Shown here: one piece after another, positions 10,158 through 61,811 of the stretch
How the letters are laid out: each line of letters opens with the position of its first letter
Numbering within the stretch: the first letter of the stretch is position 1
Source of the DNA: Mesotaenium endlicherianum
Taxonomy: Eukaryota
Direction: 5' to 3'
NCBI GenBank assembly: GCA_009602735.1
Contig: WELA01001939.1
Location: 959,742 to 1,023,741 of the forward strand
DNA length: 64,000 nucleotides
The notes under the pieces: generated by a model
Seen by the model: only the letters and a program-made list of their open reading frames with translations
What the model was told of the DNA's origin: nothing
Databases searched by the model: none
Translations under genes and position numbers: made by a program

Positions 10158-16029
<5,872 letters not shown>

Positions 16030-24087: not shown

Positions 24088-26960
24088 TGTGACTGAGGAG
24101 GAGGACGGAGATCCAGTCGTACGTGTCCATTCAATTCACAGTTGCCGTGTGGCTGCCGCAGAGGGCCTTGCTACCCCAGCTGTAAGACCCGACCATGGGC
24201 GGAGCGTTGAGCAGTCTGCTCAGCTCCCGCGATCCTTTGACTTGTTTGAGCCCGATGATACCTTGGGGCCCTCTCATGCTCGGCTGCCCGTACCAGTCTG
24301 GGATGTGCTAGCTCGTCCTGCTCATGCAGGTACCTTGGTCATCCTCCCAGACGACGTCCCCGCGGCCCAGCTGCAGGCCCAGCTGGTGTGCGATAATTTG
24401 CGCGCGGCAGCGGCTTTCGTCAAGCGCGATTTGCTTCTTCCCCCTTCATATGCCCAACTCGTGGCGGACCTGCCCCAACCTCCTAGCCCGCCACGACCGT
24501 TGACTCCACCTCGCGCATCCCCAGGACCACTTCCTACAGCATTGATGGTGATGGAGACCGTCGCAGCTCCAGCAATTTCTACCTCGCCAGCTCCGACGAC
24601 CGTGCCCGCCGTTCGCGGCATAGCCCAGGTGGTTTCGAGTCCTCCCGAGGAATTATTGGAGTCCGCAGATGAGGGTTTGCCTTACACGGTCACCTCTTGT
24701 ATCGGTCGAGTTACTTATGCTCGCCGTGACGAGGACTTACGTCCTTCCTCACCGCAGCGGTCTGTCGGTTTCCCTACTTCGAGTGATCCGGACCAGCTAC
24801 GGCCTCGTCCGGCCCATACGGCTTCGGCTTCATTTCCCGTTGTTCCTCGTCCCGCGCTGTTCATTCCCCCTCCAGCTTCGCAGTTGCGCGCAGGCGCACT
24901 GCTCCTGAAATGAATCGACTTACCAAATAGGCGATTAACAATTAATAAAGATCTTTATATCAGCAAGTAATCTTTGTGGTATTTTCCGTTAACTGGTTAA
25001 ACGGCAAAGGACAACCCACTAGCAGGGAATAATACTCGTAAGTCAAATTCGAGTAAACTAGCATCAATAATGCAATCAGTAAACTCATACATAAGCAAGG
25101 TTAGAAGACGGTGCGTATCAATGGCTTCTCGCCTTGGATTCAGATCTCTCTCAGTAAGCTGTACAAGAGAGTTGGCCTCGTTTCCGAATGCCGAACTCGA
25201 AAGCAATGCCTGGCATAGGTACATGGAATGAGTTTACTGTTCAACGGCCAGTGCGATGGCACCGCCTACCCGGGAGTTAACCACGTTGGTAGGACCTCGG
25301 TTAACCAACTCCACCGTCATCTCCCATCATCCCGACTCGCCATCCATCATAGGGATGTCATCTGGCCATCCATCTAGCATACCACACTTAGATGCATATC
25401 GAGGCAGTTCGCTGCTACCGAGTACGAAAGTCAGCTGGCTGTCAAAGAATGTGTCAGCAAGCTGACTTAAGGTGACCTCAGCCTGCTACTTCCGGCCGAG
25501 TCATTAAACTGATATTAAATATAAAGTCCAGCAGACTGATCATAAACTAGAGTTCAGCTGGCTGAACTTATTTAACTATATTATTTGAATGAATATCATA
25601 TCAACCAATATACTGATTCATTACCATCCCTCCAACTTAACATGTTGTCGCCTCGACAACACTGACACAGGGTACAAAGGTTTCCCCAACTGAAAATACT
25701 GATCCCTCTCCCATCCAGCATGCTGTGCACTTGGCCTTCCGCCCTTAGGAGGGAGATGCCCCTGGGGCCCTATGGTCAGGGGAGTCAGTCCTCCTCCTGT
25801 CTTGGGGTCTTCTGAATCCTGTCAGAAAGGGAGGTTCCGTGTAAGGACCCGGCGGAGAACGCAATAATTGTGCTGTTTCCTCCTGCACGGTCTGAAACTG
25901 AATGGAGGCAGCCTTCTCCTGGGCATCCCTCAAACTGACTGGTACATTTACCGGCATCCCAGAAGGATGTTGCATGACATGAGCTAAGGGTACATGCCCT
26001 CTCTGCGAGGGAGATGCCGGCAGGCCTCTGGCTATTTCTCTAGCAGCCCTCCTCTCTGCCCTGTCTGACTGGGTCTCTGTGCCTGGAGATGGGCTCTATC
26101 TTCTGGCAGTTCCCAGCCAAGTGATATCCTCCTCTTTAGCGAGTTGCTGAGCCAACCCCGTCTTCTCCCTTATAGGGGATGTGGAAGGTGTCAGGATCAC
26201 GGCAGGTGTAATGAATTGGTATATTGGTTGACATAATATTCATTTAAATAATATAGTTTATTAAGTTCAGCCTGCTGAACTCTAATTAATGATCAGTCTG
26301 CTGGACTTTATATTGTATATCAGTTTAATGACTCATCCCGAAGTAGCAGGCTGAGGTCACCGTAAGTCAGCTTGCTGACACATTCTTCGACAGCCAGCTG
26401 ACTTCCGTACTCGGTAGCAGCGAACTGCCTCGATATGCATCTAAGTGTGGTATGCTAGATGAATGGCCAGATGACATCCCTATGATGGATGGCAATTCGA
26501 GATGATGGGAGATGGCGGTGGATTTGGTTAACCGAGGTCCTACCAACGTGGTTAACTCCCGGGTAGGCGGTGCCATCGCACTGGCCGTTGAACAGTGCAC
26601 TCATTCCATGTACCTATGCTAGGCATTGCTTTCGAGTTCGGCATTCGGAAACGAGGCCAACTCTCTTGTACAGCTTACTGAGAGAGATCTGAATCCAAGG
26701 CGAGAAGCCATTGATACGCACCGTCTTCTAACCTTGCTTATGTATGAGTTTACTGATTGCATTATTGATGCTAGTTTACTCGCATTTGACTTACGAGTAT
26801 TATAACCTGCTAGTGTGTAGTCCTTTGCCGTTAAACCAATTAACGGAAAATACCATAAAGATTACTTGCTGATATAAAGATCTTTATCAATTGATAATCG
26901 CCTATTTGGTAAGTCGATGCATTTCAGTGGCATCGGAGCAGTTATCACAGTCTTCTTTGT

Positions 26961-32563: not shown

Positions 32564-34222
32564 ATGACTCAAAAGTCGGAACTCAAGAGGAAGAGAAGGG
32601 CGGAAGAGGCACATGCAGAATACTTGCAATTCCGTGGAGACATCGATTCATCTTTTATCTCCGCTCGGGAATCAAAACGACTCCAACAACAGCGGGATGC
32701 ACAGAAGAAGAAGGAGGAGGAGGAACAAGCCAGACTGAGGCAGGAAGAAATGGACAGAAAAGTTGCAGAGGAGGCTAAGAAAGCAGAGGAGGAGAGGCAA
32801 GCTGAGGAGAAGCGGAAGCAGCAGGCTGAAGAAGAAGAACAGAGGAGAATCAGCAGCTACCGCTACACAGTGCTGGGCAAGGGCTTTGATCTACTGGAGG
32901 AGGCCTTCAAGTATGCCCAGAGAAGTCGCAGTGAGTCGCAGAACGAAATCCTCCAGAGGGAAGGGGAGACATCAAAAACTTTGACAAGTATATAGAGGTC
33001 AGCACAGGGCTCCTCCTCTACCTCGATTACGCCAGGATGGTAGGATAAACAATCGGAGAGGCCAAGGCAATGGCCCAGGTGAACGAAGCAGGAGCTGTCT
33101 CGATTCTTGGTATCTTGGGGGCCGATAGGGTCATCAGGATGATCCCCATGGACGCGGACAGCTTCAAGGACTCAACACCCCATAACAGGTTCAAGGCCAT
33201 GTACAACGAGGTGGAGAGGAGGAGCTGGGAATTCGTGGCCAGGGAAACCAGTCAGCTGGACTTTGCAGGGCACTGATACCCTTGTACTCTTAAAAGGACA
33301 GACCCTGCCTTCTTTCAAAAGCCCTCCGATTGGCTGTGGATGACCATCAACATGAGGGACCAGCAGAATGACAGGGCGACGGATGAGGATTTCGTGACAG
33401 ACCTAAAGGGGAACATAGTATTGCCCCCTCACATTGCGGCTTGGGACCCAAGATTGGATGGAGTCACAGATTGCATGAGCCAAGAAATGCAGGGACACAG
33501 AAGCAGGGCCCGAGAGTCATTCTCCAAAGGGAAGCACGCTTATGCCAAATGGGCAAGTAAGCAGGGGGGAAAGGACCTCTATGCGGTCCGGGCTCAGCAG
33601 CCCCCACTAGCACCCAAAAGGGGAAGGTCAGTAGGATTTCTTTTTCTCGGGAAGAGCTGGAGCAGCTGACAGAAGAGACCCCAGAAGTCTCAGAGGAACC
33701 CGGGGACGGAGAGGAGGAGGAGTCAGAGGAAGACGAGGAGGAAGGCGAGGAGGAGGACACTAGCCCCGCTGTGATCCTGACGCCTGCCACATCCCCTATA
33801 AGGGAGAAGACGGGGTTGGCTATGCAGCAACTCGCTGAAGAGGAGGATATCACTTGGCTGGGGACTGCCAGAGGACAGACCCATCTCCAGGCAAGGAGAC
33901 CCAGTCAGACAGAGCAGACAGGAGGGCTGCTCGGGAGATAGCCAGAGGCCTGCCAGCATCTCCCTCGTAGAATGGGCATGTACCCTTGGCTCATGTCATG
34001 CAACATCCTTTTGGGATGCCGGTATACGTACCTGTCAGTTTGAGGGCTGCCCAGGAGAAGGCTGCCTCCCTCCTGACTGTGCAGGAGGAAACAGCCCAAT
34101 TACTGCGTTCTCCGCGGGGTCCTTACACGGAACCTCTCTCTCTCACAGGCTTCAGAAGACCCCAAGACAGGAGGAGGTCTGGCTCCCCTGAGTATAGGGC
34201 CTCAGGGACATCTCCCTCCTAG
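32564..34222 (+). pseudogene. A2 ORF3, unknown protein, frameshifted
   Basis: Pieces 32564-32995, 33070-33276, 33340-33669 and 33986-34222 are collinear with the ORF3 of A1 and A3. Confidence 0.75.
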
Positions 34223-34820: not shown

Positions 34821-35897
34821 ACTGACCTTCCCCTTTTGGGTGCTGGTGGGGGCTGCTGAGTCCGGACCGCATACAGGTCCTTTTCCCCCTGCTTGCTTGC
34901 CCATTTGGCATAAGCGTGCTTCCCTTTTGAGAATGATTCTCGGGCCCTGCTTCTGTCCCCCTGCATCTCCTGGCTCATGCAGTCTCTGACTCCATCCAAT
35001 CTTGGGTCCCAAGCCGCAATGTGAGGGGGCAATACTATGTTCCCCTTTAGGTCTGTCAGGAAATCCTCATCCGTCGCCCTGTCATTCTGCTGATCCCTCA
35101 TGTTGATGGTCATCCACCGCCAATTGGTGGGCTTTTGGAAGAAGGCAGGCTCTGTCCTTTTAAGAGTACAAGGGTACCAGTGCCCTGCAAAGTCTAGCTG
35201 ACTGGTTTCCGTGGCCAAGAACTCCCAGCTGCTCCTCTCCACTTCATTATACATGGCCTTGAATCGATTATGGGGTGTAGAGTCCTTAAAGCTATCCGCG
35301 TCCATGGGGATCATCCTGATAACCCTATCTTCCCCCCAGATACCAAGAATCCATACAGCCCCTGCTTCGTTCACCTGGGCCATTGCCTTGGCCTCTCTGA
35401 CCGTATATCCTACCATCCTAGCGTAATCGTGGTAGAGGAGGAGCCCCGTGCTGACCTCTATATACTTGTCAAAGTTTTCGGATGTCTCCCCTTCCTTCTG
35501 GAGGATGTCCTTCTGTGACTCACTGCGACTTCTCTGAGCATACTTGAAGGCCTCCTCCAGTAGATCGAAGCCCTTGCCCATACCCTGTGTAACGGTAGCT
35601 GCTGAATCTCCTCTGCTCTTCTTCAGCCAGCCGCTTCCGCTTCTCCTCAGCTTGCCTCTCCTCCTCTGCTTTCTTGGCCTCCTCTGCAGCTTTTCTGTCC
35701 AGTTCTTCCTTCCACAGTCTGGCCCGTTCCTCCTCCTCCTTCTTCTTCTGTGCCTCCCGCTGTTGTTGGAGTCGTTGTGATTCCCGAGCGGAGATGGAGG
35801 ATGATTCGATGTCTCCACGGAATTGCAAGTATTCTGCATGTGCCTCTTCCGCCCTTCTCTTCCTCTTGAGTTCCGACTTTTGAGTCATCCTGCTCAA
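34821..35897 (-). pseudogene. A1 ORF3, 5' part (3' part at 25745-26206)
   Basis: Coiled-coil N-terminus followed by the conserved domain; split by A2. Confidence 0.75.
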
Positions 35898-41059: not shown

Positions 41060-44000
41060 GCCAGGAGCCTACCACCCCAAGACCCACTTCACGAGAAGGC
41101 AACACGCCAAGTGAGGTGGAGACCCCCGTTGAAGACGACGTTCCAGCCCCAATGAGTTTGAGAGGTTACCTTGGAGGAGAGAAGGTCCACATCTTGGTGG
41201 ATAGCGGAGCTCAAGGCAACTTCATTGCTGCAGATTTTGCCACCAAGCACGGTATTACTATGCGAACTCTTGACCACGACGAGGAGATTATGATGCCCGA
41301 TGGATTCTCCTATACTACCCCTTCCAAGAAGACGTACCCCTTGGCACTCTCTATCAAGTCCTTCAAGGATAGAGTAGTGTTCTCCCCCATGCAATTGGGC
41401 AAGTACGACGTCATCCTAGGGACGCCTTGGTTGACCAAGCACAACCCCCAAGTTGATTGGAGGACCGGTACTATCAAGATCAAGAATGACATCACTTCAA
41501 GAATCTGTATTTTGCGCGCAATCCAGAATATCCAGACCCAAGACATCCAGAAGCCGGCACACGAGATACTATTGTCCGCCCTCCAACTCAAGAGACTTGT
41601 GAGGAAGGGACACGAGCTTCTTTTGGCCTTGATCACGCCAAAAGACATCAAGAAAGACATCGAGAGTCAAGAAGGCAGCCCCGTTCCCAAGGAGATACAA
41701 GAAGTCTTTGAGGACTACAAAGAAGTGTTCTCCCCGGAATTGCCCAAGGGCCTACCCCCCAAAAGATTCGTAGACCACAAGATAGAGTTGGAGCCCGGAA
41801 GCAAGCCCATCTCTCGGCCTACGTTCAAAATGTCATACACGGAGCTAGACGAAGTCAAGAAGCAAATCAAGGAGCTACTGGAGCATGGCTTCATTCGACC
41901 TAGCAAGTCGCCATTTGGAGCCCCGGTGCTATTTGTCAAGAAGAAAGATGGTACCTTGAGGATGTGTGTGGACTATCGCGCCCTCAACAAGATCACCATC
42001 AAGAATCGATACCCGCTGCCGCGCATGGATGAGCTCATGGACCGGCTGGTTGGAGCCAAGTACTTCACGAAGATTGACTTACGGAGCGGCTACCACCAGA
42101 TTCGCATCGCAGAACCGGACATAGAGAAGACGGCATTCAGGACAAGATATGGACATTTTGAGTTCATGGTCCTGCCATTTGGACTCACCAACGCGCCAGC
42201 AACTTTCATGACTATGATGAACACCATATTTCAGCCCATGTTGGACAGATTTGTGGTGGTATTCATCGATGACATCCTTATCTACAGCAAGACCCTTGAA
42301 GAGCATGCGAGACACTTGAAAGAAGTCCTTGAAGTATTGAAGCAAAACAAGCTGTTTGCGAAGGAGTCAAAATGCGAGTTTGCCAAACAAGAAGTGGAGT
42401 TCCTAGGTCTCCACGTGACTGCTGATGGCATCAAGATAGACCCCAAGAAGACCACGGTGGTGGAGGAATGGCCAACCCCCACGACCAAGAAAGAACTCCA
42501 GTCATTCTTGGGATTTGCCAATTGGTACAGAAAATTCATCCAAGGCTTCTCGCACATAGCAGCCCCCCTGACAGATCTACTCAAGAAGGACAGGCTATAT
42601 ACATGGACCGAGAAAGAGGAAGAGGCATTTCAAGAGTTAAAGCGAAGATTGACCACATCCCCGGTGCTCACACTCCCAAGTCCAAACCCAGATTGGCCCT
42701 TCCACGTCATCACCGATGCATCTTCCTATGCAATAGGAGCAATCCTGCTTCAAGACCAAGGCAAGGGACTGCAGCCCATCGCCTACGAGTCAAGGAAGCT
42801 AAATCCAGCCGAGCAAAATTATACAACCACGGAGCGAGAGGCATTGGCGATTGTACATGCCTTGAAGGTTTGGCGCTGCTACGTTGAAGGACGCAAAGTA
42901 CTGGTCACCACGGACCACGAGGCGTTAAAGCACCTCCAGACGCAGCCGTATCTCTCAAGGAGACAAGCAAGATGGAGCGGATACTTGCAACAATACAACA
43001 TCACGATTCAGTACCAGCCCGGCAAGACAAACCCGGCTGACCCCCTCTCAAGACTGCAATTAAATGCAGTGATGGTATCCCTGAAGACAGATCTGGAAGC
43101 TCGATTTTCAGCCGCCTATGAAAGAGACCCTTACTACAAGAACGGAGAAGCAGCCTTGGACCCATGCAAGAAGCAAGAAGGCAATTATTGGGTGAGGCAA
43201 GATACGGGCCAGAGATGTGTTCCTAATGACTTAGACCTCCGGCTCTTGCTTCTACGAGAAGCACACGACAACCCTCTTGGAGGACACTTTGGAATCCTAA
43301 GGACCACGGGCGTTCTAGCTAGGACTTATTGTTGGCCAGGCATGTCTAAGCAAGTCAAGGAGTACTGCAGGAGCTGTGACACATGCCAAAGAATCAAGCC
43401 ATCATCGCAAAAGGCGGGAGGACTCCTCCAACCACTACCAATCCCCGAAAGACAATGGACGGACATCTCAATGGACCTTATCGTGGACTTGCCCGTGACA
43501 CCTCGAGGCCATAATGCAATACTCACGGTGGTGGACAGACTTACCAAGATGGCTCATTTTATTCCCACGACGACTAAGGCTACAGCACCACAACTTGCAA
43601 GACTCATCTTTGACAACATCTTCCGACTCCATGGACTACCATCAAGAATTGTGTCAGATAGAGATCCAAGATTCACAAGCCATTTCTGGAAAAATCTCTT
43701 CAAGAACTTGGGTACATCGCTGGATATGTCTACTGCCTACCACCCACAATCAGATGGGCAAACCGAGCGTATGAATCGTACCCTAAAGACCTCTCTAAAG
43801 GCCTACGTGTCTACCCTCGAGCAAGACTGGGACATGTACTTGACCCCCCTCGAGTTTGCCTACAACAACACTACGCAGGCCTCTACCCAAGAGTCCCCAT
43901 TCTTCCTCAACTATGGCTTCCATCCGACCACGCCACTGAGCTTCACGGCTGGCCATGATGAAGTACCTGCAGCCACAGATTTTATGGAGACATTAGAAGC

Positions 44001-44646
44001 AGCCCTTACAGCAGCGAAGAAAGCTCTACAACACGCGCAAGATGCTCAAGCAAGAGTGGCGAACAGATCCAGAAGAGAAATTACGTACAGAGTGGGTGAC
44101 AACGTGTTACTATCATCCAAGAACATTTCCCTGAACAACAGGCCTGCCGGCAGCAAGTTCTCTCCCAAGTATTTGGGACCCTTCAAGATTATCCAGCAAG
44201 TCAACCCCGTTGCTTTCAAGCTAGAACTTCCCCAGACTATGCACATCGACCCCGTATTCCACGCTTCCCTCTTCAAGCCATATGTGCAACCCGACAACAA
44301 GTTCCCAGGACGTGTGACAACCCCACCAGCCCCAACAATAGTGGATGATCATTTGGAGTACGAAGTGGAAGACATAGTGGCTATGAGAAATTTCAGGAGA
44401 CAGCAGCAATACTTGATCAAGTGGAAAGGATATCCAGATTCGGAGAATAGTTGGGTGGCGGCGCACTACCTTGACAAAGTTCAGAGAAAGTTGAAGCGCT
44501 TCCATGCCGCCAACCCCCATCTTGGACCAGCCCCAAGTCTCTCTACTAAAAGCCCGAAGACTTCAGGGAGGCAGCCTGCCACCATCAAGAAGCAGCAGAA
44601 GACCCCTTGGAGGCAGCCTGCAAGAACCACAAAGAGGAAAAAATGA
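41038..44646 (+). CDS. Family B pol (PR-RT-RH-INT-chromodomain), intact, -1 frame relative to gag
   Basis: LVDSGA, FIDD, TDAS, HHCC zinc motif, VSDRD, GPF, chromodomain EYEVEDIV...YLIKWKGY; no internal stops. Confidence 0.95.
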
Positions 44647-45255
44647 CATTAGACACTCTTCTCTTCTTGCAGTTTCTGGACAGTAAACTAAAACTGCTAC
44701 TGGCAATAGTTCTCTTCATAATAAATTCTGAAAATTTACGTGGCTGTAGTCCATGAGTAGCCAGTCATTTAGAGTCCAAGTTTGCTCAATTTGGAGCACT
44801 GGTGAGAGAGATATGATGCTCTAAGTAGAAGGGGGTCAGGTTGCTGGCATTGTTAGGACAGAATATGCCTTCTGACATTGTGCCCTCCCCTGAACTTGGA
44901 ATGCTTTGAAACTCAAGACGCTGGTAGAACATCTTACAGCGCCCATTTTGAGACTTAGTTTGCAGAATTTAGAGAAGTATAGAAGGACTTATGATTTTCA
45001 GAAGTTTCTGCACAGATTTGGAGGAGTGCCTACTCTCTCAGCTCTCAACGACACTCCAGAAATGAGAATGCTCTCAAATTTGGTGACCCGGTAGAGTTCT
45101 CCGACGCGGTCCGTCTGGCACTCAAATTTTCAGATTTGGAGCAGTTCTGTGGCCGCTATAAATTTTTGAATTCGTGGCAGATTTTGGGCCAACTTGTACA
45201 ATTTTCTTTATCATTAAGGAGTAGGCTAGCCAATAAGGTCACACCACCTACGACC

Positions 45256-45385
45256 TTGCCTAGTCTACCTTACATGTGTAGCACCTGACTTGGCGCCTTT
45301 GACTAGTCCTCTTCACATGTGTGGCATCTGACTTGAAACTGTTGACTAGTTTGCTCCACATGTGTAAGACCTGACTTGACGCGCC
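45256..45385 (+). repeat. 43-bp tandem repeat x3 in the family B 3'UTR just before the PPT
   Basis: TTG(A/C)CTAGT...CACATGTGT...CTGACTTG units at 45256, 45299 and 45342. Confidence 0.8.
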
Positions 45386-46195
45386 GAGACGTCGCTTTTT
45401 CTATCGGGGGGGTGATGTAGTGATTTGAGTTATTATATATTAGTTTGCATATATTTTAATGTTTTCAAATATATTTGGAGTAGTATTGTGTGGAGTCAAG
45501 TGTGAATAGGTACTCTAGTAACTTGGTTCATGTCCTTTGAACCTTCCAAGGCATTTTCGAAGTTAGAGGAAAGACCTAGAAGAACTCCATGTGGCAAAAG
45601 TCAGATGTGCCATTTTTAGGTCAAAAGGACATGTGTACATTATTCTAGAAAGAGGTGGCAAGTTTTGGGATGTGTTGGGTGCCAACACATCAACACACAC
45701 CTTCCTAGAAATTACTTATGTAGCAAGTATATAAACAAGAGTTAGAACATAGAAAGACATTCCAGAATCACTCTTGTACTTGCCAAAATCTAGAAATATA
45801 TTAACTTTCAAGAAGCCATCTCTCTTTCAAAAAGCTACCACTTGTGTTCAGAGATCCTTGTCTTGAATAGATAAAGTATTCTGTTTTACTAAGTACTTTA
45901 TCAATCTGTTTCACTACAAGGGCTCCTGCAATCATGCAATGCAGTAGGATAGGGGGGACTGTGTTTTCCAGACTTTTGCATTGTTCTCCTGACTCAGCAA
46001 AGAAATGTTGGACATCAGGTGGAACAAGAGCATCCAGAGTGTGCACTCTCTGGACGTCTATATTGCTGATGGTCTCCTTTATCTGGTTGTCAGACATGCA
46101 TTGTGAATCCAGTTCAGCAGGACCCATAATACCTGCTACGAGGGCAGCTAGTGACGACTCATTATCTCTAGCATCCTCACAGTCAGTAGACTGGA

Positions 46196-47674: not shown

Positions 47675-48759
47675 ACAAAGAAGACTGTGATAACCGCTTC
47701 GATACCACTGAAATGAATCGACTTACCAAATAGGCGAGTAACAATTAATAAGGATCTTCATATCAGCAAGTAATCTTTGTGGTATTTTTCGCTTACTGCT
47801 TAAACGGCAAAGGACAACACACTAGCGGGGAATAATACACGTAAGTCAAATGCGAGTAAACTAGCATCAATAATGCAATCAGTATACTCATACATAAGCA
47901 AGGTTAGAAGACGGTGCGTATCAATGGCTTCTCGCCTTGGATTCAGATCTCTCTCAGTAAGCTGTACAAGAGAGTTGGCCTCGTTTCCAAATGCCGAACT
48001 CGAAAGCAATGCCTAGCATATGTTCATGGAATGAGTTTACTGTTCAACGGCTAGTGCGACGGCACCGCCTACCCGGGAGTTAACCACATTGTTAGGACCT
48101 CAGTTAACCAAATCCACCGCCATCTCCCATCATCCCGAATCGCCATCCATCATAGGGATGTCATCTGGCCATCCATCTAGCATACCACACTTAGATGCAT
48201 ATCGAGGCAGTTTGCTGCTACCGAGTACGGAAGTCAGCTGGCTGTCAAAGAATGAGTCAGCAAGCTGACTTAAGCTGACTTCAACCTGCTACTTCCGGCC
48301 GAGTCATTAAACTGATATTAAATATAAAGTCCAGCAGACTGATCATAAACTAGAGTTCAGCTGGCTGAACTTATTTAACTATATTATTTGAATGAATATC
48401 ATATCAACCAATATACTGATTCATTACAGCTCCCTCCCTCCTTATTCACTGTATCTTCTGCTACTCTCACGCAGGCCCAGGACGAGATTACGCACGAGCT
48501 CCTACGCCGGCGTCCACGGTCCGCCATCCCACCTGGGCCAGCTTCCCTCGTGACCCCAGCGGCTCCCACCAGTTGTCCACATGGGGCCCCCTGGACGTCT
48601 GCCTCGCGAGATCGTCTCCGTCAGCAGCCTCGACGTCGACGCCAGGTGGGTTGTCTCCTTTTGCCCCCTCTTTCACTCCTTCTCCATTGCAGGGCCTGTC
48701 CCCTCTCAGGTCAGTTCCCTCTTCCTCCTTCCTCACCCCTCTCGAACGGCAACGTGCAT

Positions 48760-49120
48760 TGCCTCGTAATGTCATGCTCGACAACCAACATGCTTGTCTC
48801 CTTCTGGCCGGTCTAGCCCCTCATGTGGTCATTCTTGACACGGGTGCTCAGCCAGTCCTTTTGGGTGCAGTCATGTGTCGACACCTTAACATCACCGCAA
48901 CCAATCTCGAGCCTTGTCCAAACCCCGTCTCTACCGCCATGTCTTCTTTAAATTAAAATGCATATCAAACCCGTCGCCGCATCCCTATCACCCTCAATGC
49001 CCACACTCCCGCCGCTGTCACCCTTTACGCCCAATGCATGGTCACCAAATCCACCGCTTATGATATCCTTCTCGGTCAGGAATTGAACTTCCTCATTCGG
49101 CTCACTATTGACTTGTGGCA
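48760..49120 (+). pseudogene. Aspartic protease of element X
   Basis: VVILDTGAQPVLLG catalytic motif and downstream YDILLG in the same frame, with one stop at 48954. Confidence 0.8.
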
Positions 49121-49523
49121 AGGGATTGCTACGTATCGGGTTGACTTCGAGTCTCTGGGCCACCATCTGGGTTACCTTCCCCTCCTTCTTACACATACCC
49201 CTTCTACTCTCGTGTGCTCTGTGGCCACGGCTTTCACAGTCACTGTCCATGATCTTAGTCCTAGTGATCTCACCGATCCTACATACCTCCTTCTCCATGA
49301 CGTTGCACCTGACGCCCTTCCTGTTTGTTTAGCTCAAACTACCCTTCTTTCACCGCTGCCCTCCTACCCTATCCCTCCTGCTACCCTTCAGCAGATCCAC
49401 ACAGCCTTGCACTACCCCTCTCCTCCCATGGTTTCTCCCCCAGCCCCTCCCCCTTCACCTCTTACATCCCCTCCCCCGGTCGTTAACACCCCGCCCATCC
49501 GTTGGCTGCCTCCCCCCGCAGGG

Positions 49524-50381
49524 ATTACCGTGCTGGACTTGTTTGCCGGGGTGTCTTCTACTGTTGCGGGTCTTCTGCAGAGTGGCCACCGTATTGCCCA
49601 CTACTACTACTGTGATGTGGACCTCGTGGCCCAGCTGGCGAGTCAAACACACCTGGGTGCTTTACACCTCGCCTTCCCCACTTTACTCCCTACGACTTCC
49701 TATCACACCGTCTATTCCGCATTGCCTCAGGATATTCGTCTCCTCCACAGAGATCACTTGCTCGCTATCGGACCAGTTCATCTTTGCGTCGGCGGTTGGG
49801 AGTGTCAGGGGCATTCTAGGGCTGGGCATGGGGGAGGGCTGGCTGACCCGCGTTCCCAATCATTTTTCGAGATGATATGCGTCTTAGGCCTCCTCCAGAC
49901 TTCTCAGTCCTCGCCACCTGCATACTTACTCGAAAACGTGAACTCCGCGGATGATGATCGTGCTCACATCCGGGCTGACTTCTTCACCATCACATCCATT
50001 CTGGGGCCCGACGTTACTCTCGACGCCGCAGCCGTGGGGTCTTACGCTCATCGTTCGCGTGCTTACTGGCAAAACCTTGTCCCTTCCACTACCCTTTAGC
50101 CTATCTTTCACAACATACACTCGCATCCCACTCGCATCACCGTCACCTCCATCTTGGCCCCGCACCGTTGCCCCATGGAAGTCAGTCGCGCTGACCACGC
50201 TTCTTTCAGTCAAGTCAACTTCCCGGATGACCCTCGGGCCGCATTCCCCACTCTGGTCAGCCGTCCCCACTCTTTTGCATTCGTAACTATGGGCCTGGCA
50301 TGTTATTTGAATCTCCCACTCACCAGTATGTGGAGCCCTTCGCGTCCAAACGTAAGCTCATTCTGAGTTTTATTCCCCACG
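49524..50381 (+). pseudogene. DNMT3-like C5-cytosine methyltransferase domain of element X, motifs I-IX
   Basis: I TVLDLFAG; II YYYCD; III QDIR; IV GGWECQGHS; VI YLLENV; VIII AHRSRAYWQNL; after a stop (50097) and a frameshift, IX-like EPFASKRKLILSFIPH. Confidence 0.9.
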
Positions 50382-51215
50382 TGAAATGAATCGACTTACC
50401 AAATAGGCGATTAACAATTAATAAAGATCTTTATATCAGCAAGTAATCTTTATGGTATTTTCCGTTAACTGGTTTAACGGCAAAGGACAACACACTAGCA
50501 GTGAATAATACTCATCAGTCAAATGCGAGTAAACTAGCATCAATAATGCAAATCAGTAAACTCATACATAAGCAAGGTTAGAAGACAGTGCGTATCAATG
50601 GCTTCTCGCCTTGGATTTGGATCTCTCTCAGTAAGTTGTACAAGAGAGTTGGCCTCGTTTCCGAATGCCGAACTCGAGAGCAATGCCTAGCATATGTACA
50701 TGGAATGAGTTTTACTGTTCAACGATCAGTGCGATGGCACCGCCTACCCGGGAGTTAACCACGTTGGTAGGACCTCGGTTAACCAAATCCACCGCCATCT
50801 CCCATCATCCCGAATTGCCATCCATCATAGGGATGTCATCTGGCCATTCATCTAGCCTACCACACTTAAATGCATATGAGGCAGTTCGCTGCTACCGAGT
50901 ACGGAAGTCAGCTAACTGTCAAAGAATGTGTCAGCAAGCTGACTTAAGTTGACTTCAGCCTGCTGCATCCGGCTGAGTCATTAAACTGTTATTAAATATA
51001 AAGTCCAACAAATTGATTATTTAATTAAAGTTCAACAGGCTGAACATAATTTACTATTACATCTAAATGAATATTATATCTACTAATATACTGATTCATT
51101 ACAATCCCTCTAACTTAACTTGTTGTCGCCTCGACAACATTAAGCTTCAAGAGTTGTTATTCAGCAAACTGGACCTGACCCGCCTTTCCCAGTGACTGCT
51201 CCTTCAGCCTTTTGC

Positions 51216-52892
51216 CTAGGGGGTTGTTGCTGGGGCTTCAGGATCAGGAGACGGAGATCTGGACCTGGATCTGGACAGCCCTCTAGGTCTGTCAGCTGGC
51301 CTTCTAAAGAACCCCGTTTGCTCTAAAGTTGGACCGCGAGGAGAACGAAGGATGGTAGCCTGCTCTTCACCCACTTGGGTGTTGATCCCCACATAGACAG
51401 GCATTCCAGTAGGATGCTGAAACACATTGGCAAGAGGTACATGCCCCTGAGCGAAGGGAGAGGCCGGCATACCTCTGGCCACCCCGCGGGTCCCTCTTCT
51501 GGCACCCCTGTCCTCTGGGGATTTCTGCCTGTGTCTGCTGCCAAGTACAGTCAAATCAGCTTCTTCCCCTGCTTGGGCAGGAGGGCTGGGGGAGCGAGTG
51601 CGGGGTCCAGTTGCCTCCATGACAGGGATCACGTTCCAAATACCTGATCGTGGTTCTTTAGGAAGTGCCCCTGCCTGCCCCTGGGTCTCCTGAGTACCAG
51701 CTGCTGATGCTTCTCCTCTGCCCTGTTCTTCTTCCTCATCCTCCTCATCCTCCTCCTCGGAGAGAGTAGGAGTCTCGTCCACTAAATCGTCCTGCTCCCT
51801 AGTGGACATGGAGTAGTCTACCGACCTCCCTTTCTTAGGGCGCGCTGGAGGTTGCTTGGCCTTCAGCCTGCTGATATCTATCCGGCCTGCATTCTTTGCC
51901 CATTTGACAAAGGCATGCTTTCCCTTAGAGAAGTAGTCTCTTCCCCTCCTCCTATGCTCCTTGGTCTCGGCATTCATATTGCTCAGGCATCCATTCAGCC
52001 TGGGGTCCCAAGGGGCAATGTGAGGTGGTAGGATGAGATAGCCGTCTAGGCCATAGTGGAAGTCATCCGGTTGGGCTCGGTCACACTCCTGCTTCTTATT
52101 TGTGACGGTCATCCACCTCCAGTCTGTTGGCTGCTGGTAGTACTGGGGTCCGTGCTCAACCTTCCTCAGTTTACACGGGAACCAATGGGGAGAGAACATC
52201 TGCTGTCCTGCTTCCCTGGCCAAGTACTCCCAGCTCCTTCTCTCAACTTCATTGTAAGCTGGCAAGAGTGTGAGGTAGAATACCGTATCCTTAAAGCTAT
52301 CGGACCGCATGCTCACCATCCGGATGAGTCTCTGATCTCCCACTATTCCCGGTATGGGGACCGGCTTGTCCTCTAAATCATCTGCAAGGTAGCGGGCCTG
52401 CTCTGCTGTATAGCCCACCATCTTGGCATAATCTTCGTAGAGGACCACACCAGTGTGTGTCTCGATGTACCTCTCCAGTGCTGCAGCTCCTTCCCCTTGT
52501 AGCAGTGTTGTCTGTTCCAGCTTGTTGATTTCCTGGGCTGCCAGCAATGCTTCCTTCAAGTTATCAGAGTTTTGGCCACCCACCACAGTATATCTGTAAG
52601 TGGCCAAGCTCTTCTGTCTGTCCGCTTCAATCTTTTTCCATCTCTCCTCCTCTGCCGCTGCTGCTTCCTCTTATTGTTTCTTCTGTCTCTCCTCCTCAGC
52701 TTTTCTGAGGTTTTCTGCTTCCTCATCCTTCTTCCTCTGTGCCTCTTCTGCCGCCTCTTGTTGTCTGCGGACCCTTTCTTGTTCTCTCCTGGTGAGGGAC
52801 GTCGCCGCTAGCTCCTTCTGGTATTGCTCCATTGTCCTCCTGGCTTCTTCTGCCTTGCGCTTTCTGTCCTCCTTTTGTGTGGTGGGAGCCAT
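51216..52892 (-). pseudogene. A3 ORF3, divergent variant, about 558 aa with one premature stop (52671)
   Basis: ORFs 52671-52913 and 51216-52607 are in the same frame; MAPTTQKEDRKRKAEEARR start. Confidence 0.8.
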
Positions 52893-53284
52893 TCTGCACA
52901 TGTGACCAGGCACAAGTTAGTAGGATATTGACCTTTGTCATAGGAGTTGCAGGAGAGAGTAAGTTCATATTACTATGGTATATTCGTTCCTGTTTACCTT
53001 ACAGGGTGATTGCTAGGAGTTAACGTAGTTGCGGTGCGCCAGACATAAACGTATGAATGTGTTTTCAGGTGGGTCAAGTGATGTATTGCTGTGCGAGGCC
53101 CTTATTCGTTCAGCCAAAGGTGCTTTATGTGGGCCAGGCTGTCCCCTATGTCACTATGCTGACACTTAGGATTCACATAACCGTCCCTTTCGCACTCTCG
53201 CACACTAACTGTCATATATTTTCCCCTCCAACTTAAATGGAGACAGGACCTCCTGTCACCTTCCCGTGTCAACTGAAATGACTG

Positions 53285-56200
53285 TTAGGGAGGTGCTCCA
53301 GCCGCCCGAAGGTGGAACCGTTTCAACGCCCCTTTGGCATTAGTCAAATGGTCCTTAAATTCCCAAGTGTCCCTAGAGGCATCGTAACCTTTCCATCGAA
53401 TGAGATACTTCATGACATATTTAGACGATCGACGGACCGAGCGGGCGTCTAAAATTTCATCGACCTCATATTCTTCAGGATCGCCGTCCCGGACAGCGGG
53501 GACCGGTCCCGGTTGGACAGGTAACCGACCTGTGAACAGTGTATCACCTTTGATGTATGGTTCCAGGAAGGAGACATTAAAGACAGGGTGACCCATATAT
53601 TCGGCTGACATATTCAGTTTGTAAGCATTCTCACCGACACGACGTACCACCGAATATGGACCAACCCAGACAGGACCAAGCTTTTTCTTGACCACGCCCG
53701 GGAGGTACAGGTGCTGAGAATGCAGTTTGACTAAATCGCCCTTGGAAAATGTCAGCGCCCGGCGGTGTTGATTAGCGTATTTTTGTTGGTTTTCTTGGGC
53801 TTTGTGCAGGTTTTGTTGGACATTTGACAGGGTGTCAGCAAACTCCTGAGTTAACTGGAGGGAGACCGGGTTGTCAATCCCTTCAGGGTCAGTTAAAGAC
53901 TCCCCCAGTACATCTAAAGGAGACTTAGGAACTCTACCCAGGCTGAGTTCAAAAGGAGTCTTGCCCGTTGACGCGTGCACCGCACTGTTGACCGCAAACT
54001 GAATTTGAGGCAACAGGTCATCCCAATTATCTTGTTTTTGGTTAATATATGCTCTCAGCACCTCCTGCAGAACTCGGTTAGATCTTTCAGTCTGCCCATC
54101 AATTTGAGGGTGGTTGGCTGTGCTGAGAAGCTGTTTGACTCCCATTAACCCCATTAAAGCTCTCCAGAACTTAGAGGTGAATTTTGAGTCTCTGTCTGAG
54201 ATGATATTAGAAGGGAGCCCATGTTGGCATACTACATGGTTGTAGAACTGCCTCGCTGTTTCGAGTGCAGTTACTTTGACAGTTGTGGGGATAAAAATGA
54301 CCATTTTTGTCAATTTATCAACGACTACCAGTATTGAATCAGCCCATTGGCAGTTCTTGGTAGTGAGATCATCCAGTCCATGGATATCGTTTCCCAGCGT
54401 CCAGCTGGGATGGGCAGTGGTTGCAAGAGACCTCTTGGTGGTGTGTGCCGAGACTTATTTCTGTGACACTGATCGCAGGACTGACATATTTCAAGACCTC
54501 CCGGGGTAACCCCGCCCAATGATAATGTGTTGCCAGTTTGCCAACAGTTTTGGACTGCCCCAAATGTCCACCCAGGAGACTGTCACGCGCTTGACTCAGT
54601 AAGAGAGACCTTATTTCCAAGTTATTAGGAATGACCAGCGTCAGCCTGCCTGAAGTTGTTTCAGTCACCCAGACGCCTCTCTTAAGCTTATACCCGAGTG
54701 CAGTAGCACGACACTCACCAATAGTGGGGTTGGGCTCAAATGTTGGGTCAGAAAGGTAGGCTTTCCTAAGTTGTTCTAGGAAGGACTTTTTCACCTTTAG
54801 TGAAGTGAGTGCACACAGGACTTTATCTACAGCATGCTGACTAAAGTTCCTTTCTTGCAAGTCAGGTCTTCTAGAGAGTGCATCGGCAGGATTCAACTTC
54901 CCTGGTTTGTAGTCGATCTGGACTTGGAACTGCTCCAGCATCTGGCTCCAGCGGTTCTCCCTCCTCGACAGCTTGGACTTCTTCTGAAAGTGGGTCAGAG
55001 CTAGATGATCTGTAATCACCTTAAAAGCTTTACCATGTAAGTATGCTCTCCACTGTTTGAGTACATGAATGATAGCTAGCAGCTCTTTATCATGCACTGA
55101 GTAATTAATCTCCGCTGGATTAAATTTCATAGACTCATACAACACAGGATGCCACTCCTGCCGTACCTTACCATCCTTTGTGGTTTTGTCAGCAGGCTGC
55201 AACAAAATAGCACCCATGGCAAAATCAGAGGCATCAGTAACCACCTGCACCGGTTTGCTGGGGTCATACACGGCTAGCACTGGGGCAGAACAAAGGGCAT
55301 CTTTAAGGGTCTGGAAGGCAGCCTGCTGCTCTTCCCCCCACACATACCCGATGTCTTTCTTAGTAAGGTCAGTCAGTTTACTGGCCTTTGTGGAATAATT
55401 CTCAATAAATCTCCTATAGTAGTTAGCCAACCCGAGGAAGGATCTAACTTCAGAGACAGACTGTGGTACTGGCCAGTCCCTTATGGTCTGGACTTTCTTA
55501 GGATCCACACTGATGCCCTCTTTACTGACAACGTGGCCTAAGAATTCAATACTTTCCTTAAAGAAATCACACTTGCTCATTTTAGCATACAAGTGATTTT
55601 TCCGCAGAGTGTCCAGCACTTTCTTTAAGTGTTCAGTGTGCTGAGCTTCATCTTTAGAGAAAATTAAAATATCATCCAGGAAAACTTGCACAAACTTATC
55701 CAAATAAGGTCTGAAAATGTCATTCATAGCACCCATAAAGGTAGCAGGAGCATTAGTCAGTCCAAATGGCATCACGTTGAACTCATAGTGTCCATAACGT
55801 GTGCGGAAAGCAGTCTTGTGTTCATCCCCCTCAGCAATTCTGATTTGATGATAACCACTCTTGAGATCTATCTTACTGAACACCTTAGCGCCAGACAGGG
55901 TATCAAGCAAGTCCTCGATTCTGGGTAAAGCATACTTGTTCTTTACTGTAATTCTGTTCAGGGCTCTGTAATCCACACACATCCGCATACTGCCATCCTT
56001 TTTCTTAACAAATAGGATAGGTGCGCCGTACGGTGATTTACTGGGAGAAATGTAACCATTTTCCTCCAGCTCTGCAATCTGTGTTTTCAACTCCTCGCTC
56101 TCCAAATAAGACAAGCCATAAGTGCGTTGCCAGGGTGGCTGGCTACCAGGTAATAGATCAATCCTATGATCTACTTCCCTTTTAGGGGGTAGTCCTGGAG

Positions 56201-57095
56201 GCATGTTAAACACATCAGTGTACTGAGCAACAATTTTTGCAGCAGTAGGGTGCTCCGGAGGGCTTACCTTTTTCTCAACCACTTCTTCAGGTTGAGGAGG
56301 TACCTCTCTTAGCAGCAGACAGAACATTCTGTCTTCCTTCTGGTTCCAGCTTTTGACGAACTCCATTGCATTCAGCAACTTGCATCCTTCTGGAAGCCTC
56401 TTCTTTTCCTTCATTTGCCATCCACACAGGACAAGAGGAAGAGCACTGGTGGGTGCCAAGTCAGTCTGCCCATCACTGGCTCCTCTCACTTTAACTGTAC
56501 CTCTGCTCCAACACACTTCAGCTTGATGTCTATTAAGCCAGGACCTGCCTAGCACGAGATCATAAAAGCCAGTGTTGAGTACCTCAAATGTAAGCGTTTC
56601 AGTTAGAACTGCAATGCCAGAACCTAACTGGACCTCAATAGGCTTGGTTATAACTCCTCCCGGGATACTTGAGGCATCTCCAAGGAATATTTTTCTATTC
56701 CCTTGGGTGACAGTAGGCAGCCTTAGCCGCTTAACTAAGTCCTTGTGAATAAAAGTATGTGACGCCCCTCCGTCAACAAATGCCCTCACCTTCCTACCTG
56801 CAATCATGCAATGCAGTAGGATAGGGGGGACTGTCTTTTCCTGACTTTCGCATTGTTCTCCTGACGTAGCAAAGAAATGTTGGACATCAGGTGGAACAAG
56901 AGCATCCAGAGTGTGCACTCTCTGGACGTCTATATTACTGATGGTCTCCTTTATCTGTTTGTCAGGCATGCATAGTGAATCCAGTTCAGCAGGACCCATA
57001 ATACCTGCTACGAGGGCAGCTAGTGACGACTCACTATCTCTAGCATCCTCACAGTCAGTAGACTGGATTACTGACTGTTGCTGTCTTTTAAAGGC
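53285..57095 (-). pseudogene. A3 pol (PR-RT-RH-INT-chromodomain), frameshifted in integrase
   Basis: ORFs 54369-56999 and 53285-54313. Confidence 0.92.
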
Positions 57096-58578
57096 TGGTC
57101 TTTTCTCTCGACCTTAGGCAGGTGCTTGACCGGACACTGTTCTCTGTAGTGGCCTTTCTGCTGACAATGGTAGCAAGTAGATTTTGCTGAGGCTGGTCTC
57201 GGCTTAGTCCTACCACCACCCCTTCCATAGCCACCTCGAGAGGGACCACCTCTACCTCTAGACTGAATAGCATTGTACTCATACTCATATTCATCACCCT
57301 GATTATCCTCAGCCTGGTCTCCTTCAATTGCATTGTAGGAACCGTGGGGCTTTTTGACAATCTTAGACACCAAAGCGTTACTCTGGCGCTTGTGATTGAA
57401 CTGCTGCTGATCCCAAGCGTCAGCATCCTGGATCAAGTCAGCCAGTTTCTCATACTTTTCTCAGCGAAATGACCAGAGACTTCGGATTTCAAGCCATACT
57501 TGAAGTATGCTATCCTATACCGTTCTGGCAAGTCTGGCTGCTTCAACATGTTCTCCTGGAACTTTTCAGCAAACTCAGCAACTGAAGTGGTCTGCTTCAG
57601 TGTCAGGGAGATCATCGCATAGATAGCTTTCTCCTGCTGGTTGATGACATCAAACTTCTCATGCAACTTCTCGACAAACTCTACCCACGTAGGGTCACCG
57701 AGTTGCCGAGCCTTACGCTCTCTTTTCCAGTAAAGCCACCAGTCTGCGGCACTGCCTTTCAGTAGCGCACCGGTGTGCCTGACCTTCTCGTAATCTTGCA
57801 GTTCTGGATAGTTCTCCAGCAACTGCTCAACATCAGCGAGAAACTTGATCAGGTAGTATGTTCTGTTACCCTCAGGATCATATTCCTGGGGAGGTTTCGG
57901 CTTGGGCTTACTAGGCCCCCGGCCACCACCACTAGTGGTTTGAGACCCCAATTGGTCTCTGTCCCGCAGGAGAGACATTATGATTCTTTTGTCCTCCTGT
58001 TGGGACTGATACATGGTCGCCATTTGCGACTGCATTTGAACGAATAATGCTCCCAAGTCTACACAATGGGGTGGTAGTCTAGCAAATGCAGCAGCAGCAT
58101 TGGCATCTACTCGTTGAGTAGTGTCCTCAACAGTCCCTCTCGCTCCTGCAGCAGCAATTCCTGCCGCATTCAGCCGGTCACGTATTTGACCTAGGGGTAC
58201 ATTGAGTTGTACAGCAGGAGGTGGGTTCGGAACATTGGCCCTTGATGCCATAAGTTCCTCGACAGTGCGCCAGTCAGCTGGCTGTCTTTCCCTCCTTTCT
58301 GTATCTTTAGCGGCCTTTGCTAATTTTTCAGCTTCTAGCCTGGCTCTCTCCTCCTCAGCTTGCTGTGCTGTGACTGCGGCAATAGCAGCTGCCTCATCTG
58401 CAGCCTCTCTAGCTGCAGTATCTGCCACTGCTTCAGAATAGGTACGGGTTCCCGCTACATGGCTTTCCGCCTGGTTTTGGACATTCTCGTTATCCTGGTT
58501 CTCCATGTCTCGTGAGTTGCTAGTTTGAGACCTCGTCCTTACCATANAGTTGCTAGTTTGAGACCTCGTCCTTACCAT
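57068..58578 (-). pseudogene. A3 gag with a frameshift near 57455
   Basis: ORFs 57433-58578 and 57068-57436. Confidence 0.9.
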
Positions 58579-59335
58579 ACAATGAAGATTGTGATAACCG
58601 CTCCGATACCACTGAAATGAATCGACTTACCAAATAGGCGATTAACAATTAATAAAGATCTTTATATCAGCAAGTAATCTTTATGGTATTTTCCGTTAAC
58701 TGGTTTAACGGCAAAGAACAACACACTAGCAGTGAATAATACTCGTCTGTCAAATGCGAGTAAACTAGCATCAATGATGCAAATCAGTAAACTCATACAT
58801 AAGCAAGGTTAGAAGACAGTGCGTATCAATGGCTTCTCGCGTTGGATTCGGATCTCTCTCGGTAAGCTGTACAAGAGAGTTGGCCTCGTTTCCGAATGCC
58901 GAACTCGAGAGCAATGCCTAGCATATGTACATGGAATGAGTTTTACTGTTCAACGGTCAGTGCGATGGCATCGCCTACCCGAGAGTTAACCACGTTGGTA
59001 GGACCTCGGTTAACCAAATCCACCGCCATCTCCCATCATTCCGAATTGCCATCCATCATAGGGATGTCATCTGGCCATTCATCTAGCCTACCACACTTGA
59101 ATGCATATCGAGGCAGTTCGCTGCTACCGAGTACGGAAGTCAGCTGGCTGTCAAAGAATGTGTCAGCAAGCTGACCTAAGTTGACTTCAGCCTGCTGCAT
59201 CCGGCTGAGTCATTAAACTGTTATTAAATATAAAGTCCAGCAAACTGATTATTTAACTAAAGTTCAACAGGCTGAACATTATTTACTATTACATCTAAAT
59301 GAATACTAAGTCAAGCAATATACTGATTCATTACA

Positions 59336-59440
59336 CCACGCCACTGCCTCTCTTGCCTTATCCCCCTCTCAACGTTGTCGACTCCTCGGTCGAGTTATGG
59401 ACATTCATGCTCTCACCTTGCTTTTCTCTGTCCTCCCTGT
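59336..59440 (+). pseudogene. C-terminal end (motif X) of the element X DNMT domain
   Basis: After the TSD it reads ATASLALSPSQRCRLLGRVMDIHALTLLF, comparable to DNMT3 motif X (RQRLLGRSW). Confidence 0.8.
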
Positions 59441-59608
59441 CCTGAACGCACGGCTTCCTGATCCTCTCCTTCACACTCCAGCCTACCCCTTGCCTGCTTT
59501 CGGCTGGGGGGGGGGAGTTCCGTCGGAATTTTCACGCCTGCATAGCAGTTACAGCCATCAGGTCCACCTCCCGACCCTTCTGCATCCAAACTTAAGGACG
59601 AGTGGGAC

Positions 59609-61811
59609 TTGGGCACACAGTTAACTAAGGAGGAAACCCTACAGTTCACTCAAATGCTGGAACGGAATGAGGCTTGTTTTGCACGTTCAGTCATGGATCT
59701 AGGACGGTGTATAATCTCTCAATTCACCATTGATCTTACTAGCAAAGGATCGGTTTTTTTGAGGGATTATTGTCACGCTAAGGTCAAACAAGATATTATG
59801 CGGGAGAAAGTCACAGAGTTGTTAAAGGTGGATATGATTGAGGAGTCAATGTCGGATTTTGCAGCCCCACTGTTATGCCTGCTAAGAAGGACGCAATGGG
59901 TAATTATACGGAAAAACGTATGTGTGGAGATTATCGGGGACTCAACCCTATTACAAAATTGGATCGCTACCCTATGCCCATGCCTGAGGATATCTTTGAT
60001 TTCCTTGAGGACGCCTGCGTCTTCAGTGTGTTCGACCTGCGGCAGGGGTTTAACCAAATCCTCATTGATCCTAAGGATAAACATAAGACAGCTTTTTGGG
60101 CAAATCGTCGTTTGTATCAGTGGAAAGTCATGCCGTTTGGGTTAAAGAACGCACCTGCCCGTTTCCAGCGCATTATGGACCGAGTGCTTAGTGGGTTGCC
60201 TTTTGCTTGTTGTCACATTGATGATGTGCTCATTTTTAGCCGTACCGTAGAGGAACACTTGACACATGTTGAACGGGTCCTACAATGCTTGAGGTATGGG
60301 GGTTTGAAGTGTCATCCAGGGAAATGTAAGATTGCGACCCTTTTCGTTCCTTACCTGGGCCACCATATCGTCCCTGAAGGGTTAAAGTCGCAGCAAGTTA
60401 AGGTCGATGCTATCCGACGACTACCAGTTCCGACGGATGTGTCTAGGTTGAGGGCCTACATGGGGATCACGGGGTATTATCGTCGTTTTGCCCTGATTTT
60501 AGTGCGATTGCTGCCCCTTTGAATGAACTCCTGAAGAAGGATGTGCCTTGGGAATGGACTGGGGAACGTCAAGTAGCTTTTGACAAATTGAAGGATATCC
60601 TATTCTCTTCTCCTATCTTGCGTAGACCAAACTACAGTAAGCCGTTTTCCCTTCACACTGATTGCAGTCATCTCGATTTGGGGGCCGTTCTTGCTCAGGA
60701 GGATGAGGAAAGTCATGAATATGTTGTTGCGTATGCCAGTCGTAGTAAAAACTATACCGTATGAAAGGGAATGCTTGGCTGCAGTATGGGCTGTAGTGCA
60801 CTTTTGTCCATACCTCTATGGTACTCATTTCACACTCATCACTAATCACCAACCCCTTAAATGGCTGATGACTAAGCAAAAACTCACGGGTAAACACGCA
60901 CGTTGGGCTCTCATACTTCAAGAGTACGATTTCACCATTGAACATAAGGCTGGGTTAAGTAACCAGGATGCGGATGGCCTTAGCCGCAACCCTAACCCCT
61001 TGGACGTTGATCTCACCGGGGCTCGTTTTGCCTCTAGCCAGCAAGTACATATCCTGCCAGCCTGGCATGCTGCCTATTATCTCGGTCTTCTTTCTACTCC
61101 TATTGGCGCATGTGCGGTCAGCCCGGTTGTCCTCCCGCATGCAGTGCCTGATGTGTGGTCTGATTCTGCTATGATGGAGTATTTGCGCACTCATACCTGG
61201 TCTTCTCCCCTCTCGTCGCGTGAACAAGACCGAGTTTTGCATCGTTGTGTTTGATATTACTGGTATGAGGGGACGTTGTAACGTGTCTTCCCTCACCACA
61301 CCCGAGTCATTCCACCCCCTCCTGAACGCATACCTCTTATTCGTAAAATCCATAAAGTGTCTGGGCAATTCTGAGTTAAACGCACGAGTTCTCTTCTGCA
61401 AACCGAGTTTTGGTGGGAGGGGTTGGTCGCTCAAGTCAACGATTTTGTTCGTTCATGCACGTCGTGTGACCGCGTTAAGAACACTTTCAATGCACTCGCC
61501 TCCGTTCTCAATCCTCTTCCCCTCCGTGGGCTTTTCTAACGATGGTCACTGGATTTGGCTGGGCCGTTACCCCTCTCTAAGTGTGGGATGCGCTACGTCC
61601 TTGTGATGATTGAGCACCTCACCAAGTGGATCGAGTTGGTGAGTATTCCTGATAAGTCCAGTGCCTACATTGCTAGAGCGTTCACGGAGCGAGTCCTATG
61701 TCGCTATGAGGCGTGTGCTGAGGTCCTCACTGATCAAGGGTCGGAGTTTCAGGGTGATTTGGCCGAGTTGCTTGATAAGTCATTTATTGATCATTGCACT
61801 ACCTCTCGAGA
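59609..61811 (+). pseudogene. RT, RNase H and partial integrase of element X, multiply frameshifted
   Basis: RMCGDYRGLN, MPFGLKNAPA, HIDD; LHTDCS, YASRS, ERECLAAVWAV; integrase WIELV...VLTDQGSEF, cut at 61812. Confidence 0.9.

Follow-up and report, generated by a model that had tools for sequence, protein, structure and literature searches.

Extra ORFs are common in LTR retrotransposons of the plant lineage, and their function is an open question (PMC7264820; PMC6317226). A 64,000-nucleotide stretch of DNA from Mesotaenium endlicherianum, hereafter the window, poses this question for one family of chromoviruses, family A, which carries a third ORF, ORF3, between pol and the 3′ LTR. Is ORF3 a gene, how is it expressed, and what might its product do? 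The ORF occurs in two versions on the same backbone, a natural comparison in which the shared parts mark the functional core and in which version differences in copy number, methylation or insertion sites are readable from the full genome. Without a function, ORF3 stays one more orphan aORF.

Element A3 (50382..59335, minus strand) has LTRs at 58612-59335 and 50382-51103 that are 96.3% alike, and its 5-bp target duplication, CGTGG, marks it as a single insertion. It has a Met-type PBS, a gag that overlaps pol in another frame, and a pol with the order PR-RT-RH-INT-chromodomain. By profile search, family A encodes a Ty3 capsid, protease, RT, RNase H, integrase and chromodomain; together with LTRs ending in TG..CA, a PBS, a PPT and 5-bp target duplications, these features identify it as a Ty3/gypsy chromovirus. 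The chromodomain lies at the integrase C-terminus (PF00385, E 5.6e-10), with its aromatic Y, W and Y residues visible in the sequence. Among green plants, such aromatic-cage chromodomains are confined to non-seed plants, according to PMC6317226; in Additional file 5 of that source, 83% of Tcn1 elements are self-priming, so a Met-type PBS would be atypical there. At the gag/pol overlaps (57100-57130 and 28405-28440) the two genes lie in different frames, and a TTTAAAA heptamer preceding the gag stop is likely a -1 ribosomal frameshift site. A scan of A3 against Rfam gave no matches.

The right half of the window is a nest of Ty3/gypsy elements. Self-comparison and target duplications delineate three family-A copies that reach the 3′ region, and a fourth starts at 61812 and leaves the window. 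Element A2 (48428 to 24906, minus strand, target duplication GCTCC) contains both family B and element A1, the latter (from 26207, plus strand) inserted within A2's own ORF3. Family B is a young chromovirus (39239-45918; LTRs 98.6% alike, duplication AGGGC) located at a deletion junction in the protease region of A2; its pol is a single long ORF, and it lacks a counterpart of ORF3, the longest frame after pol measuring 97 aa. A 623-nt run in A1 pol (29999-30621) is identical in A3 pol, with the rest of pol 93-97% identical, reflecting either recent gene conversion or collapsed assembly. The family-A insertions are hosted by a gypsy-like element with a cytosine methyltransferase (22771-24904, 48433-50381, 59336-61811). 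Its methyltransferase domain, PF00145 at 49038-50099, has below-average support (E 2.5e-5) and is followed by RT and RNase H; the element resembles gypsy elements with a methyltransferase (KnitGypsy-Dnmt3) known from a charophyte (PMC5890265). Taken with the aromatic-cage chromodomain, it makes a streptophyte alga or a non-seed plant the likely host. Elsewhere in the window, inverted repeats of 745 nt (1201-1945 and 7633-8377, 99% alike, 5.7 kb between them) enclose LTR fragments about 70% like family A and are possibly a DNA transposon with long terminal inverted repeats; no ORF3 adjoins the distant LTR relative at 4787-6300. An intron-flanked KH_2-domain exon, which we take to belong to ribosomal protein S3 and which marks the window as eukaryotic, is directly followed at 11373-12737 by about 6.8 copies of a 200-nt unit (98-100% identity), an array that is either a young minisatellite or an assembly artefact.

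The original prediction placed a 1.7-kb ORF between the chromodomain and the PPT in A1, A2 and A3. The position stands; the ORF itself is broken in every window copy. In A3 (51216..52892, minus strand, 558 codons, version 2), ORF3 follows pol, which ends in the chromodomain and stops at 53285, and precedes the 3′ PPT and LTR; it has a single in-frame stop at 52671-52673 (codon 74). ORF3 of A1 (32564..34222, plus strand, version 1) has frameshifts near 32973, 33637 and 33879 and three stops, at 33046, 33274 and 33968. A2, also of version 1, retains the 5′ part and core (34821..35888, minus strand), with one frameshift before the core and an end in an N gap (34580-34820), and a tail (25745..26206, minus strand) severed by the A1 insertion. 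These lesions are mostly private to the window copies. The A3 stop is absent from the four contigs of sequencing run X4 that cover 52673 (45/45 depth) and from 4/4 reads of run X16. Among the matches listed (40 of 397), all contigs over the A1 stops differ from A1 at at least two of the three. At the A1 frameshifts, the depth with another length is complete in X1 and partial in X4 and X7 (10/54.6 and 15.8/20.7, respectively, at 33637). ORF3 is present in all three window copies that reach the region, and it is covered in X4, X7 and, partly, X1. Over the core, the sense frame contains no stop in A3 or A2 and two in A1; the other sense frames have 7-12 and the antisense frames 3-12. The A3/A2 alignment score is 550 in the ORF3 frame vs 96-280 in the other five. 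An antisense ORF as the cause of the conservation was rejected because the other frames carry stops and align poorly.

The predicted protein comprises four parts. The E/K/R-rich N-terminus (residues 1-105; 52578..52892, minus strand) had been read as a coiled coil, but with L/I/V/M/F at 6-11%, a best heptad a/d occupancy of 0.11-0.19 and enrichment of opposite-charge pairs at i+3/i+4 (p<=0.0005, 2000 shuffles), it instead fits a predicted charged single α-helix. The predicted domain of about 250 aa corresponds to a conserved, aromatic-rich, globular core of about 240 aa (residues 106-345; 51858..52577, minus strand) common to both versions, with a single shared cysteine and no known family. 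Downstream, a basic PKKGR patch, a candidate nuclear localisation signal, precedes an acidic tract with 52% D+E (51708..51875, minus strand). The P/R/S-rich tail (51219..51707, minus strand) contains seven SP and six RS dipeptides and holds a second conserved block, with 53-60% aa identity between versions. An acidic tract, an SP/RS tail and a conserved PKKGR/PKRGR patch together suggest that the product may be nuclear. The expectation that it is not env-like is borne out: by hydropathy scan, without a dedicated predictor, the 19-residue maximum reaches 0.73 in A3 and 0.88 in the A2 core, giving no TM segment, and Pfam yields no env family match. In the same scan a charged N-terminus occupies the place of a signal peptide, so that neither env feature, signal peptide or TM segment, is seen; A3 ORF3 also has no N-glycosylation sequon.

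The core is under purifying selection and is as constrained as pol. A codon model of the core in the three copies gave an omega of 0.138 and rejected omega=1 (lnL -1760.2 falling to -1820.8, 2dlnL about 121). Between A1 and A2, core pN/pS is 0.20 (bootstrap 95% interval 0.10-0.36; 210-215 codons), similar to int-chromo (0.21, A3/A2) and RT-RH (0.27, A3/A1), with gag at 0.37. For A3 against A1 or A2, core pN is 0.33 and pS 0.75-0.77, which is saturated, with identities of 0.63, 0.69 and 0.40-0.42 at the three codon positions; protein-guided alignment could bias this between-version estimate, a concern that does not extend to the A1/A2 value. Constraint is weaker in the N-terminus (A1/A2 pN/pS 0.62, interval including 1) and intermediate in the tail (A1/A2-tail pN/pS 0.43, 0.22-0.95). 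ORF3 had been proposed to be selected, and a dN/dS near 1, named beforehand as the contrary result, was not observed in these three copies. We are highly confident that ORF3 is a real selected gene.

ORF3 lies within a divergent cassette (51144..53202, minus strand) of spacer, ORF and short 3′ UTR on the family-A backbone, delimited by self-BLAST, sliding identity and junction alignments. As anticipated, the DNA of A1 and A3 is 84-100% identical over LTR, gag and pol and 45-59% over spacer and ORF3. In 250-column windows the backbone measures 91-100% except for two edge windows at 87% and 84%, and spacer and ORF3 span eight windows. The predicted shared motifs recur in the A3 and A1/A2 versions, except that in A1 WRWMT appears as WLWMT and a stop replaces the W of HWxPC, and core amino-acid identity between versions is 47-49%. 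On the backbone, A3 is separated from A1/A2 by a dS of 0.07-0.15, but pS in the ORF3 core is saturated, which makes the two ORF3 versions far older than their backbones. Both cassette edges adjoin a PPT motif. Identity falls about 20 nt past an internal copy of the motif (53224..53235, minus strand), which sits 50-60 nt after the pol stop, and returns about 25 nt before the true 3′ PPT (51106..51117, minus strand); a short hairpin precedes each, and version 1 carries a third copy. The cassette has a GC content of 53-54% vs 46-49% in pol.

In all three copies the junction of pol and ORF3 is free of N, and both junction types recur in independent runs. Run X1, which bears another organism label, shows both spacer types after the same pol end: it contains version-1 spacer contigs, one of which departs at 32301 into letters like the A3 spacer. 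X4 covers both versions in every bin, version 2 at depth 23-61 and version 1 mostly at 31-122, with one low-complexity bin at 350. This arrangement, seen in three copies, suggests that recombination between element lineages likely exchanged the cassette. Template switching between co-packaged RNAs is established retroelement biology, and the simplest reading would be exchange by such switching during reverse transcription, at the shared flanking sequences.

Searches for relatives of ORF3 were largely blank. In Pfam the best E value was 0.06, with nothing useful for the N-terminus and tail, and PDB sequences gave no matches at E<=10. A word-based protein search returned none of 2588 candidates of 266-847 aa and none of 7996 of 41-454 aa; the control, family-A gag, also returned 0/1022. 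These blanks are therefore weak evidence of novelty, due in part to poor coverage of the lineage. HMMER against 1.84 billion representatives gave two matches (E 1e-7 and 8e-5), one a TPR protein and the other a bacterial repeat protein; both were discarded because their scores add up over repeats. The best ESM atlas score, 0.77, fell inside the range of shuffled proteins and gave no usable match. AlphaFold models are of low confidence (pLDDT 39 and 33), and a Foldseek search with the first, which found nothing at E<=0.001, carries no weight. Related loci sought by the ORF3 pattern were confirmed in 0/101 metagenome and 0/57 viral cases; an integrase query yielded three of 62 metagenome loci (33-39% identical, 1.1-1.6 kb) and none of five viral ones. 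A match to a described env or accessory family had been named as the finding that would remove novelty, and Pfam and the sequence searches produced none.

To the extent that transcripts can be traced, they point to splicing upstream of ORF3. A 104-nt GT-AG intron (52894..52997, minus strand) ends 1 nt before the ATG of A3 ORF3, its joint (52892/52997) occurring in one X4 contig with a short side of 27 letters, one of which must differ from the window copy. After a one-base shift, the boundaries read AAG/GTAAAC and GTGCAG/. Removal of this intron takes out three upstream ATGs, and the intron holds a branch-like CTAAC motif. In both versions a GCAG acceptor sits one base ahead of the ATG and a CTAAC-like motif (one mismatch in A1) lies some 20 nt upstream, in spacers that are otherwise unalignable. 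The kind of run X4 represents is not on record, but GT-AG ends lie within 3 nt at eight of its 13 skip joints, vs 5.6% per joint expected by chance, which indicates that X4 holds spliced RNA. Six of these eight run antisense to the element, a sign that cryptic splicing is frequent here. Within pol, a sense GT-AG joint (55197-56303, 1107 nt) is present in a single X4 contig, and an antisense one (53518-53806, 289 nt) in X4 and in eight reads of run X13. Element transcripts are spliced in both directions.

No leader-intron joint for version-1 ORF3 was found in X4, X7, X1 or X17, and at least three contigs (from X4, X7 and X1) cross its spacer or acceptor unspliced. Raw RNA reads from three studies, sampled at 6-24% of each run, give little core coverage: X10 has depth 0 in all eight bins from 51110 to 53093, X16 and X13 reach at most 2.5 and 2.4 over 51854-52845, and X17 at most 0.75 over 33050-33637. 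Assuming conventional library strandedness, most reads at the pol 3′ end run antisense; loose read ends suggest truncated copies. Removal of a 5′-leader intron just before the ATG is partly shown, and expression of ORF3 from a separate spliced message is likely, though not established. An internal promoter or a read-through transcript would supply that message.

What might the product do? We tentatively favour, at less than even confidence, the reading that ORF3 is a conserved, selected accessory gene, likely a swapped cassette with its own spliced message, encoding a nuclear factor that keeps the element transcribed against silencing. That the protein is nuclear and acts in trans is, taken by itself, somewhat probable. 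The basic patch would carry it into the nucleus, the core would recognise its target, nucleic acid or chromatin, and host factors would be recruited through the acidic tract and SP/RS tail, as in a transactivator or anti-silencing factor. There is precedent for a nuclear aORF product in Grande GENE23 (PMC7264820), and a Tekay 5′ aORF has a predicted NLS (PMC11728184). The family-A insertions sit inside another transposon and hence give no sign of heterochromatin escape. A bolder form of this reading, which we regard as improbable, is a new counter-silencing family carried as an exchangeable cassette between duplicated polypurine tracts, where a host arms race would keep two ancient versions together on one backbone, in the way that retroviruses trade env.

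The competing readings are, like the favoured one, ranked from anatomy and precedent. The RS/SP-rich tail and basic patch would also suit a regulator resembling Rev or CERV, which would bind element RNA in the nucleus so that unspliced genomic RNA escapes splicing and exits; its RNA target could lie within the cassette and travel with ORF3. The sense joint in pol shows that element RNA can be spliced, and CERV, a 517-aa nuclear protein that a Gypsy-type element expresses through a spliced mRNA (PMC10309623), provides the precedent. However, that joint is a single contig, Pfam recognises no RNA-binding motif, and CERV has a cysteine loop and exons in common with gag, whereas ORF3 is separate with one shared core cysteine; we consider such a role unlikely, if worth entertaining. 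ORF3 could instead be a captured host or viral gene of unrelated activity, such as an enzyme or an RNA-silencing suppressor, whose family is missing from libraries. Placement between duplicated PPT motifs, as 3′-end capture could leave, the raised GC content and the poor coverage of the lineage revealed by the gag control fit this origin, but Pfam, PDB and the ESM atlas gave no match and the 1.84 billion representatives only the two summed repeats, and we judge it doubtful. Doubtful to a slightly greater degree is a particle or integration cofactor aiding nuclear entry of the pre-integration complex, or target choice alongside the chromodomain. It would use the candidate NLS, with the long charged helix as a possible spacer arm, and the role has been proposed for aORFs (PMC7264820), yet the integrase already has a chromodomain, and the pairing of one Gag and integrase with two versions that are 48% identical speaks against tight contact with either. 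An env-like fusion or movement protein would account for the env position and the acceptor directly before the ATG, but is very improbable given the low maximum hydropathy, the charged N-terminus, the missing sequon in A3 and the lack of an env family match. Least credible, and already largely refuted, is an assembly chimera or non-functional sequence: single-N joins occur inside A1 and A3, the two share the 623-nt identical pol run, and all copies are broken, against which stand the A3 target duplication, the N-free junctions, an omega of 0.14 and both junction types in independent runs.

In position, the nuclear accessory factor that we tentatively favour belongs to a known architectural class. 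Sense ORFs between pol and the 3′ LTR (aORF-3S or eORF-3′F) have diverse products, mostly of unknown function, and splicing is reported for barley Bagy2 (PMC7264820 and PMC6317226). ORF3 is sense, longer than the 250-codon minimum, located from pol to the 3′ LTR and separate from pol, its frame being open in the family and broken in the window copies; it resembles the class in position, orientation, presence in most copies, conservation and an acceptor before the ORF. It differs in having no TM segment, plant mobile domain, Transposase_28 or Athila ORF-1 match. In Additional file 5 of PMC6317226, some rows of which look column-shifted, REXdb lists eORFs for Tekay but none for Chlamyvir, Tcn1, Reina, Galadriel, CRM or unclassified chromoviruses. 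Literature searches turned up no description of this family, nor of a pair of saturated versions sharing a backbone between PPT copies, and subscription literature may hold related ORFs. Fungal chromodomain Gypsy elements with an 'add. ORF' of unknown function likewise combine a chromovirus with an extra ORF (PMC2864245), in hosts other than the streptophyte alga or non-seed plant that is likely here.

More distant systems offer further parallels. CERV of C. elegans Cer1 is likewise an orphan accessory of similar size, made from a spliced mRNA of an LTR retrotransposon, and is nuclear; it differs in its exons shared with gag, its cysteine loop and its G-protein-like domain, and no similarity to ORF3 is shown (PMC10309623). 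Foamy viruses are retroviruses with env and no homology to ORF3, but their Tas/Bel2 accessory ORFs also lie between the enzyme genes and the 3′ LTR, with an internal promoter and a second, central PPT that primes plus-strand DNA (PMC7828637); for ORF3, an internal promoter and use of the internal PPT copy are putative. VANC proteins belong to VANDAL MuDR DNA transposons and are related to MAIN (PMC13547354, PMC11728184), whereas Pfam finds no MAIN/PMD-related domain in ORF3. By analogy they nevertheless resemble the role proposed here, as factors encoded by a transposable element that shield their own family from silencing.
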